Origin: Escherichia phage Ec_MI-02
Sequence record: OP856590.1
Direction: 5' to 3' (one strand)
Length of the DNA stretch: 64,000 nt
Shown: piece by piece, positions 29,922-36,975 of the stretch
Layout: each line of letters opens with the position of its first letter
Position numbering within the stretch: the stretch's first letter is position 1
The notes under the pieces: model-generated
What the model was told of the DNA's origin: nothing
Databases searched by the model: none
Seen by the model: only the letters and a program-made list of their open reading frames with translations
Translations under genes and position numbers: made by a program

Positions 29922-30251
29922 TCAATTAGAAAATAAATTTATCCAAGACTGTTCTTTAATTAAAAATGGCTCAGAATCATATGCCATTAAACTTTGGGTG
30001 ATTAGTCCTTTAAAAGGTCCATCAATAAATTCCATGGTAAAATATGGAATTTTATTCATTAATCTTGCATTAGGAGCAGTACACAAAACTCTGCATCCTT
30101 TGAATACACCTTTTTGTAATTTGTATTGCTTAGGATAAAATTCGCTCAAGACATTATTATTTGCCAAAATTTCAAAATGATTCACCAATTTATTTTTAAT
30201 AGTTTTTGGCGAAAAATAAAGATATTCGAAAAGCTGTGTGTCTGTCATCAT
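29922..30251 (-). CDS. Hypothetical protein (vs.7 position)
   Basis: ORF track 29922..30302; ATG pair at 30251/30248 overlaps the upstream stop (ATGATGA), giving about 109 aa; start choice uncertain. Confidence 0.5.
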   Translation of the reverse strand: MMTDTQLFEYLYFSPKTIKNKLVNHFEILANNNVLSEFYPKQYKLQKGVFKGCRVLCTAPNARLMNKIPYFTMEFIDGPFKGLITQSLMAYDSEPFLIKEQSWINLFSN

Positions 30252-30835
30252 TGCATTCCGATCACAAAAAATTGAGGACGAGTAATACCACCGGTGCAAC
30301 ATTTACTATTGCAACAGTATTGTACAGTTTCAATATGAATATCGTAAATTTTATCCATATCGGGAGATTTAACAGGCTCATCGATTATATACAAAATCCG
30401 CGAAAGCGATAAACCTCTGAACTTGCTGCCTCTATTACCGATAAAACTACGGACAGAATCAGTAAATAAACGAAAACGTATATCATCACTAGAATAACGA
30501 GAAAATTCTTTTTTAATGTGGCCTGCAGAAATTTTAGCGTAAGCTGAAGTATTAGAAAGAACAATAACTGTTCCACCGTCATACAGCCAATTAGCAGCAA
30601 AGTTAGTCACAGCAGTTGATTTACCAGATTGGCGTCCACCATCTAGTCGAAGTGTACAATATTGTTTAAGCAAGTCTTCAAATGGTGGAATATAATCGTT
30701 TTTACAAATTTCTTCTACTCTAGCATCAGAATGGTGTGTAAAAGCATTCATCAGGGATAGATAAGGACCAGTTAAAAATGTTCTCATTTTATTCTCTCTA
30801 AATTTGGGCCATTCCATGGCGCATGAATTGTCCAT
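30248..30835 (-). CDS. Small P-loop NTPase of unknown function (vs.8 position)
   Basis: Up to 195 aa; Walker A LDGGRQSGKSTA and Walker B-like ILYIIDEP; start uncertain (ATGs at 30835, 30817, 30787). Confidence 0.6.
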   Translation of the reverse strand: MDNSCAMEWPKFRENKMRTFLTGPYLSLMNAFTHHSDARVEEICKNDYIPPFEDLLKQYCTLRLDGGRQSGKSTAVTNFAANWLYDGGTVIVLSNTSAYAKISAGHIKKEFSRYSSDDIRFRLFTDSVRSFIGNRGSKFRGLSLSRILYIIDEPVKSPDMDKIYDIHIETVQYCCNSKCCTGGITRPQFFVIGMQ

Positions 30836-30940
30836 TTCTGTATTTACCCATTACCGCACTTGGGCTCGACCTTATTACAGGTTGGCGGGAATCCCTCATA
30901 GAATCATGAGGTCCAGCTTGTTCCCATATTTCTTATTTGC

Positions 30941-31414
30941 TTATTTGAATGATTTGACGTACTGAATAGAGCCTTTGCTATTCACGAAAGCGATTTTACC
31001 ATTTTTGTTATACATGGTAGCAGTACGCTGATAACCATAAGTTTGTTTACCAGATTGATAACCAACTAATGCGAAATTATCTTCACCCATTTTATTCTGC
31101 TTAGCGCGGATACGTTCATGACCGTGTGCCATAAGAACCTTAGCGTCGCCAGTTGCAATGGATCTACGAGTTTTTTCATCTTCAACTGTATTAACAAAAT
31201 CGTCAAATGAATCAAATTTAGCATGAGATTTATTATACAGTTTTCCATCTACTGCATAATTATATCCCTGTACATCCATCTCAACTTCTGTACCATCATC
31301 CAATACAGCAGTGATTTTTTGACCTTTTTTAAATTTCAAAAGATCAGTAAAAGATTCAGCGATAATTTGAGAATTAATAGCTGCTTCAGTGATAAATTCT
31401 TGATATGTTTTCAT
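30941..31414 (-). CDS. Internal-protein-like head protein with capsid targeting sequence
   Basis: 157 aa; N-terminus MKTYQEFITEA is nearly identical to the T4 IPIII capsid targeting sequence (MKTYQEFIAE-A, a prohead protease site); basic lysine-rich body. Confidence 0.65.
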   Translation of the reverse strand: MKTYQEFITEAAINSQIIAESFTDLLKFKKGQKITAVLDDGTEVEMDVQGYNYAVDGKLYNKSHAKFDSFDDFVNTVEDEKTRRSIATGDAKVLMAHGHERIRAKQNKMGEDNFALVGYQSGKQTYGYQRTATMYNKNGKIAFVNSKGSIQYVKSFK

Positions 31415-31423
31415 GTGTTTCCT

Positions 31424-31840
31424 TTAAATGTAAATAGTTTTACCGTAGTATTTATACCAGTATGGCTTCATTAAAATTTTTTCATCGAGTCGTTGTTGAC
31501 TCAACTTAATAGCTGATTTGCATGGATTATAATCATTTTTCCATTCTGCTGGAATATCGCTGATGTCAGGAACTTCAGTATCTTTTATACTAAACCCACG
31601 TTTTAAGCATTCCGTTATAATGTCTGATTGACGCTTTCGCAAAAATTCTAACTTATCGTAAAAGAACGTGACATGACCAGAACCTAAAATAAACTCGGAA
31701 GATATTTTAAAATCTTTAACCCGCTTACCATTTGCAACATGTTTACGAACTATACCAAAAACACGCGGCAGTTCACGGTATTCTGCGATTAAATGTTGAT
31801 CAGCAAGTTCAGATACTAAAGTCAAATTAATACGAGTCAT
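31424..31840 (-). CDS. denV: Endonuclease V (pyrimidine-dimer DNA glycosylase)
   Basis: 138 aa [29 protein letters not shown]...; matches T4 DenV length and sequence as recalled. Confidence 0.95.
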
Positions 31841-31865
31841 TTTATCCCTCCAAGTAACTGTTAAT

Positions 31866-31899: not shown

Positions 31900-32430
<531 letters not shown>

Positions 32431-36453: not shown

Positions 36454-36927
36454 TTATTTGATTTGTTTAGCAGACCAAATGCGGTCTTTAATAATTTTTT
36501 GGATGTCTTCAACATACTCAAGAGAGTGAACATGCGGATTATCTTTGAAACTATAAGCACGGGCTAGCTTTTGGCCTTCGGTTTTGATTACTAAAAGCTC
36601 TTTAAGGATAGCTTCATATTTAGAGATAATTCCTTTAACGATATTTTTTTCTTGTGCAGCTTTAGGATCTGCTTTAGGAGCAGGTTTACCCGAAGCCTTT
36701 GCAAAAGCAGCGCCAGTAGCAACTAAACTTTTCCAGGCCATACTAACTGCATTTCCCGTAAATCCTTCTGCTTTCATGTCGCGAGCAAATTGGAATCGTG
36801 ATTCGTCAGAAGCATCTTTATAGGAATATTTACCCGCTGCAATGGCTGCTTTTGCGACAGCTTGAATTTCGGTGCTAGATGCTTCATTTAACACCGCTTC
36901 ATTTAAAAATTGAGCATATGATTTCAT
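36454..36927 (-). CDS. Internal-protein-like head protein with capsid targeting sequence
   Basis: 157 aa; N-terminus MKSYAQFLNEA fits the T4 internal-protein targeting motif (MK[ST]Y.[EQ]F[IL].EA); alanine/lysine-rich; TATAAATA late promoter upstream. Confidence 0.6.
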   Translation of the reverse strand: MKSYAQFLNEAVLNEASSTEIQAVAKAAIAAGKYSYKDASDESRFQFARDMKAEGFTGNAVSMAWKSLVATGAAFAKASGKPAPKADPKAAQEKNIVKGIISKYEAILKELLVIKTEGQKLARAYSFKDNPHVHSLEYVEDIQKIIKDRIWSAKQIK

Positions 36928-36967: not shown

Positions 36968-36975
36968 TATTTATA
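36968..36975 (-). promoter_or_regulatory. Late promoter
   Basis: TATAAATA on the minus strand (plus TATTTATA) about 35 nt upstream of the ATG at 36927. Confidence 0.55.

Follow-up and report, generated by a model that had tools for sequence, protein, structure and literature searches.

Ip4 of Escherichia phage Ec_MI-02, a probable injected internal head protein encoded by an exchangeable cassette of the e-to-vs.8 locus

The stretch of DNA analysed here, 64,000 nucleotides (nt) of Escherichia phage Ec_MI-02 (record OP856590.1; hereafter the window), carries on its minus strand at 30941..31414 an open reading frame (ORF) of 157 codons plus stop, given in the ORF list with the start MKTYQEFITEAAINSQ and a protein N-terminus reading MKTYQEFITEA. 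This ORF is ip4 (ipIV), the gene for the internal virion protein precursor Ip4. The gene itself is no discovery, as it has already been named, annotated in RefSeq and functionally screened once; the internal-protein genes from ip4 onwards were reportedly named by Repoila et al. in 1994. We consider it likely that Ip4 is made late, packaged into the phage head, cleaved by the homologue of gp21 and injected, that it most likely blocks a host defence, and that its gene is an exchangeable cassette of the locus running from e to vs.8. Internal proteins enter the cell together with the DNA and ahead of any phage gene expression, the five whose targets are known all disarming type IV restriction enzymes, and the main interest of the finding lies in what Ip4 targets.

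The identity of the gene is established by several comparisons. This region of the window is 99.9% identical by megablast to Shigella phage pSs-1 (NC_025829), a Tequatrovirus. The protein matches the Pfam family DUF7412 (PF24183) with an E value of 5.7e-96 and a score of 319.4 bits against a cut-off of 27, such that residues 1-157 correspond to profile positions 1-158, and it matches PHROG 3155, annotated 'internal virion protein', over its full length (E 6e-102). It is 100% identical to ipIV of T2, ipIV of Yersinia phage PST and Ip4 of RB32, and 99.4% identical to Ip4 of RB51; the sole match in the BFVD structure library is the 99% identical Ip4 of phage K3 (UniProt Q38388). The Ip4/ipIV proteins of T2, K3, RB32, RB51 and PST are thus the same protein as that of the window, with 99-100% amino acid identity over 157 residues, and they are encoded at the same locus. 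The original prediction, which had been made from the letters of the window, placed an internal-protein-like gene at exactly these positions, and its reading of the gene is supported.

Searching with tblastn, we found Ip4 in 470 phage records, with at least 99% identity in 290 of them. The match is full length in 468 records, from phages whose hosts are Escherichia, Shigella, Klebsiella, Salmonella, Yersinia and Serratia, and partial in the remaining 2. A second Ip4 group with 60-72% identity occurs in T4-like phages of Klebsiella, Salmonella, Raoultella and Serratia. Mature T4 IPIII and mature T4 IPII were found in 261 and 198 records, respectively, and by these counts no other known occupant of the e-to-vs.8 locus is as common as Ip4. 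The family recovered by searches for distant relatives is small: clustering at 90% identity gives 14-16 groups, and 5 representatives remain at 50% identity among 1.8 billion proteins searched. The ratio of nonsynonymous to synonymous substitution rates (dN/dS) between Ip4 and its Klebsiella phage orthologue is ~0.12, and ip4 is therefore under purifying selection. One homologue departs from the family pattern: that of Klebsiella phage vB_Kpn_AM_K5 (P0014), 184 residues long, carries an insertion of 21 residues and ends in an unrelated C-terminus (alignment A1, columns 135-185), and is probably a frameshifted or disrupted copy.

Residues 1-10 of Ip4, MKTYQEFITE (31385..31414, minus strand), form a capsid targeting sequence that ends in the gp21-type site I-T-E↓A, where the arrow marks the expected cut. 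The original prediction had described this N-terminus as almost identical to the targeting sequence of T4 IPIII, and 9 of the 10 residues are indeed identical to the MKTYQEFIAE of both T4 IPII and T4 IPIII, whose precursors are annotated in GenBank X04567 with residues running from -10 to the mature protein. Within the close family (13 sequences) M1, K2, F7 and E10 are invariant, and in a 15-sequence alignment that takes in members of 34-36% identity E10 is still nearly invariant. These distant members also begin with signal-like sequences, such as MNFEQFLNE↓S, and one of them is encoded on a distant T4-like contig in the syntenic variable region, flanked by gene 1/57B and vs/rI.

Following the targeting sequence, residues 11-20 (AAINSQIIAE; 31355..31384, minus strand) make up a linker of low predicted confidence that ends in a second conserved site of the type [I/L/M]-x-E↓[S/A]. 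This site is I-A-E↓S at residues 18-20 in Ip4, and E20 is invariant in the 13 sequences and nearly invariant in the 15. Both E10 and E20 are preceded at a distance of two residues by I, L or M, the exception being family member P0015, which has N-D-K at the E20 site. A scan of the whole of Ip4 for [LI]-x-E returned residues 10 and 20 only. The site of prohead-protease type, to which the original prediction had drawn attention, is present and conserved. The pSs-1 record places the head maturation protease, the scaffold proteins and the major head protein at 104.6-108.4 kb, which lies outside the window, and 497 phage records encode a prohead protease with at least 99% identity to that of pSs-1. 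Judging from these motifs, the gp21 homologue probably cuts Ip4 after E10, and probably also after E20.

How does the position of ip4 compare with that of internal-protein genes in other T-even phages? The order on the minus strand of the window is e (31900-32394), denV (31424-31840), ip4, the vs.8 homologue (30248-30835) and vs.7. The upstream neighbour denV encodes endonuclease V (Pfam Pyr_excise, PHROG 1183), and the downstream neighbour, the vs.8 homologue, belongs to PHROG 1488. The ip4 gene starts 9 nt past the denV stop and 486 nt downstream of e; lying between denV and vs.8, it falls within the variable e-to-vs.8 locus, one of two variable ip loci, the other extending from 57B to the tRNA genes. 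The corresponding genes of T4 run e, ipIII, ipII, denV, vs.8. RB51 has e-denV-Ip4-vs.8 as in the window, whereas T2 is without denV and has ipIV as the immediate neighbour of e, preceded by the leader found at ipIII in T4; apart from this, Ip4 and its locus show no substantive difference between T2 and the window. Klebsiella Jiaodavirus phages, exemplified by Klebsiella phage 311F, have e-Ip4-ipII, and Bas37 has e-denV-vs.8, empty of any ip gene. There are thus four occupied layouts (T4, T2, RB51/pSs-1 and the Klebsiella phages) in addition to the empty one of Bas37. The original prediction had treated the location downstream of denV as a peculiarity; it was right that the T4 ip genes lie elsewhere, but the location is not unusual, as RB51 shares it and both T2 and the Klebsiella phages keep ip4 in the same locus.

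The DNA comparison with T4 resolves sharp boundaries around the gene. Homology to T4 stops exactly at the denV stop and restarts at window position 30929, which is 12 nt past the ip4 stop and corresponds to the base directly following the T4 denV stop; for the ip4 body itself, blastn against T4 found no counterpart. Leader and targeting-sequence DNA at 31383..31442 (minus strand; blastn, alignment A3) is common to different ip genes, in that the 60 nt from 31442 to 31383, which hold the ribosome-binding site and the targeting codons, match the 5' end of T4 ipII at 91.7% identity (E 1e-19), and 47 nt of this leader segment match that of T4 ipIII at 91.5%. Because the DNA itself is conserved to this degree, the likeness of the targeting sequence to those of T4 IPII and IPIII is, on the sequence comparison, homology and not chance. 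An alignment of leaders reveals that T2 ipIV stands behind a T4 ipIII-type leader while pSs-1 ip4 stands behind an ipII-like leader, and that this ipII-like leader also provides the final denV codons and the stop.

The 92% identity of these 60 nt to the T4 ipII leader suggests that the leader/targeting segment is probably a recombination junction for cassette exchange. Taken together, the sharp homology junctions, the shared leader and the varied locus layouts indicate that ip4 behaves as a cassette that would have been swapped with ipII/ipIII by recombination via the conserved leader and signal DNA, in agreement with how T-even ip loci are generally described (PMC3012670, PMC12373910). As a separate observation on the same locus, the denV of the window is, from its sequence, a mosaic allele: blastn of pSs-1 against T4 gives only 73.8% DNA identity to T4 denV over the stretch 31431..31844, as opposed to 92-95% in the flanking e and vs.8 regions (94.6% in e and 91.7% on the vs.8 side).

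Signals for expression of ip4 are embedded in the same boundary region. A pattern search found TATAAATA, an exact T4-type late promoter motif, at 31449..31456 on the minus strand, within the 3' end of denV and 34 nt upstream of the ip4 ATG. T4 denV has TACAAATA at those codons, the difference being a synonymous one for Tyr (TAC/TAT). A candidate promoter for the downstream cassette thus appears to be written into the upstream coding sequence. The motif is also present just upstream of e, at 32408-32415 and 32421-32428, and upstream of a further targeting-sequence ORF at 36454..36927. A Shine-Dalgarno region, AAGGAAA (31418..31424, minus strand), overlaps the denV stop TAA (31424-31426), and in the leader alignment the segment TTTAAAGGAAACA-ATG is common to pSs-1 ip4, T2 ipIV, T4 ipII and T4 ipIII. 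In a scan for sigma-70 promoters, no more sites were found than in shuffled sequence. Downstream of the gene, the 105-nt spacer between ip4 and vs.8 (30836..30940) contains a 7-bp hairpin, CCUCAUG...CAUGAGG, and a near-identical hairpin sequence directly follows T4 denV; the folding energy of the spacer is ordinary (z -0.18), with no terminator-like site in it.

The predicted mature domain of Ip4 comprises residues 21-157 (30944..31354, minus strand), with a mass of 15.5 kDa, 22 lysine and arginine residues and an isoelectric point (pI) of 9.28, compared with 9.0-9.65 for the mature T4 proteins IPI*, IPII* and IPIII*. With 13 close homologues alone, an initial AlphaFold model reached a predicted local distance difference test score (pLDDT) of 50.7 and was discarded; addition of three members of 34-36% identity raised it, so that AlphaFold2 with the 15-sequence alignment yielded a mean pLDDT of 83.8 and a predicted template modelling score of 0.78. 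In this model residues 1-20 are of low confidence and predicted to be disordered, with pLDDT below 50 at residues 10-18. The body is confident from about residue 21, save for a loop at 121-130 (mean pLDDT 58), and most 10-residue blocks from residue 31 onwards average at least 90. A comparison of the model with solved structures returned weak matches only, to small SH3/Sm/L19-like beta-barrels, with no internal protein among the best matches, and a sequence search of the PDB returned no meaningful match. As modelled, the fold of Ip4 is without a known structural relative.

Comparison of Ip4 with T4 IPI, IPII and IPIII, which the original prediction had suggested, confines the likeness to the signal and leader. 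By BLASTP, T4 IPIII is similar to Ip4 as far as residue 13 and no further, and the alignment to T4 IPII continues beyond about that residue at chance-level identity only (31% over 77 residues with gaps). No homologue of mature IPI*, IPII* or IPIII* was found by tblastn anywhere in the window. The expectation that the body of Ip4 would differ from those of the other targeting-sequence proteins of the window also held, as Ip4 has no similarity to the 157-residue protein of the ORF at 36454..36927 and the three targeting-sequence ORFs fall into three different PHROG families. What Ip4 shares with T4 IPII and IPIII (Ip2 and Ip3) is therefore the signal, the leader and ribosome-binding-site DNA, the locus, a basic mature protein and an I-x-E↓A site; the mature domains are unrelated in sequence, and the second conserved site of cleavage type, at residue 20, is a feature of Ip4.

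The T4 protein IPI (Ip1) is cut after residue 19, at an I-T-E↓A motif that is visible in its sequence. It differs from Ip4 in lying at the other ip locus, next to 57B, in its signal (MKTFKEF...), in its 76 mature residues and in its unrelated sequence. Nevertheless, the life history of IPI*, which inhibits the GmrSD of E. coli CT596, passes from a signal through gp21 cleavage to a small, compact, basic protein that is injected (PMC3012670), and we liken Ip4 to it, inferring packaging, cleavage and injection of Ip4 from its motifs. A further relative in kind is Bas37_0260, from a T4 relative, which inhibits McrBC and which, like Ip4, is a targeting-sequence accessory protein encoded in a variable ip locus. 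It differs from Ip4 in being 77 residues long and encoded at the ipI locus, and, according to the authors of that work, it is not homologous to T4 IPI, IPII or IPIII outside the signal. Bas37 is without ip4, so the study of that phage carries no Ip4 data.

Based on these motifs and the established behaviour of T4 IPI-III, the following course of events is proposed. Transcription of ip4 would take place late in infection and would start at the TATAAATA motif near the end of denV, at the late promoters of e with read-through into ip4, or at both. The 10-residue targeting sequence would bring the precursor into the scaffolding core of the prohead, where the predicted cuts by the gp21 homologue would release a basic, compact domain of about 15.5 kDa that stays in the head with the DNA and is injected with it at the next infection. 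Once inside the cell, Ip4 would most likely bind and block a host defence directed against modified DNA on its entry; the analogy points to a type IV restriction enzyme. Wherever the target of a targeting-sequence protein is known, it is a type IV enzyme that the protein inhibits, in that Ip1, Ip2 and Ip3 act against three different GmrSD variants (PMC12373910), and Bas37_0260 blocks McrBC (bioRxiv 10.1101/2025.11.20.689424), such that the type IV targets of these proteins extend beyond GmrSD. IPIII from which the signal has been removed acts from the cytoplasm (bioRxiv 10.1101/2022.04.14.488369). By analogy with these proteins, an anti-restriction role for Ip4 is plausible.

Several observations weigh against this course of events and have to be set beside it. 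Expression of ip4-10 did not reproducibly inhibit the active GmrSD variants (PMC12373910, Supplementary Fig. 9), so that Ip4 stands in contrast to T4 IPII and IPIII, which inhibit GmrSD-ECOR21 and GmrSD-ECOR17; moreover T2, itself a carrier of ip4, is restricted by the GmrSD systems from ECOR21 and ECOR17 (PMC12373910). In the literature we found no virion proteomics showing Ip4: the one proteome found for an Ip4-carrying phage, that of SH7, is a shallow data set of 13 structural proteins and does not include it (PMC5238451), and the paper on fPS-2 and fPS-90 contains no proteome. The fold of the model yields no functional clue, and no clearly catalytic residue (His, Asp, Glu, Cys or Ser) is invariant in all 15 family members, an absence that would fit a binding protein and proves nothing. 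With respect to transcription, TATAAATA occurs 14 times in the whole window against 11.1 expected, which is no significant enrichment, and for this reason the promoter argument is positional only. The exact motif is also absent directly upstream of ip4 in T2 and the Klebsiella phages, whose ip4 genes probably rely on the promoters of e.

A narrower proposal is that Ip4 acts as an injected inhibitor, by way of its orphan fold, of a host defence outside the GmrSD variants that have been tested, which could be another type IV enzyme or another form of early-acting immunity. We put this forward tentatively, at somewhat below even odds. If true, it would extend the range of targets of the T-even internal proteins, and it would explain the rank of Ip4 as the commonest occupant of its locus.

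Could Ip4 instead be packaged and injected with no specific host target at all? It would then serve as a basic, DNA-associated filler or counter-ion in condensation, packaging or ejection of the genome. The basic character and the 22 lysine and arginine residues of the mature domain are in keeping with such a role, as are the weak structural matches to SH3/Sm/L19-like beta-barrels, folds that often bind nucleic acid, and the lysines of internal proteins contact DNA phosphates according to a review of the T4 head (PMC3012670). The published test in which no GmrSD target turned up for ip4 points the same way. Set against these is the record of the targeting-sequence proteins described above, and we regard a role without a host target as unlikely. 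It is more improbable still that the signal is vestigial and that Ip4 is an unpackaged, ordinary cytoplasmic protein during infection. Such a reading could draw on the missing proteomic detection of Ip4 in virions and on the setting of ip4 within a same-strand run of early and middle genes, where read-through transcription is possible. However, the signal and both cleavage-type motifs are kept throughout the family, including most members of 34-36% identity, the DNA coding for the signal is still 92% identical to that of T4 ipII/ipIII, and the late promoter motif is correctly placed. In addition, the T4 targeting sequence is reported to bring even foreign proteins, such as green fluorescent protein, into the head (PMC3012670).

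The view that the ORF is open merely by chance, or is a pseudogene in decay, has nothing in its favour beyond the label 'hypothetical protein' that ip4 bears in many GenBank records, and it is refuted, with hardly any residual doubt, by the conservation data: full-length matches in nearly all records over six host genera and a dN/dS far below one, to which the confident fold prediction may be added. We therefore retain as likely the reading of Ip4 as a late, packaged, cleaved and injected protein directed at a host defence. The exact cassette junctions, the additional conserved cleavage-type site at E20 and the late promoter motif arising from a synonymous denV codon are small additions of the present analysis. 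With the start of the mature protein predicted at A11 or S21, a confident orphan-fold model and a short list of invariant residues also in hand, experiments on Ip4 become easy to design, and the protein is a well-defined candidate for phage-therapy and host-range work.

Two other genes of the window deserve brief mention. The vs.8 homologue at 30248..30835 (minus strand) contains a P-loop-like GGRQSGKST and is weakly like the N-terminal ATPase of the large terminase (PHROG 2, E 3.6e-6; Pfam Terminase_6N, E 0.025). The names 'large terminase subunit' and 'RegB domain protein', under which it appears in some GenBank records, are probably erroneous. The ORF at 36454..36927 (minus strand; 157 residues, pI 9.46) begins MKSYAQFLNE↓AVLNE↓ASS, a targeting-like sequence with two L-x-E sites, and its ATG is preceded, at a distance of 41 nt, by an exact TATAAATA (36975..36968). 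It is assigned to PHROG 2280, 'unknown function', and is called 'hypothetical protein' or carries no annotation in 40 of 40 records sampled from the 511 phage records in which it was found. Judging from its sequence features, this ORF looks like an unannotated internal protein that would be packaged in the head and injected.
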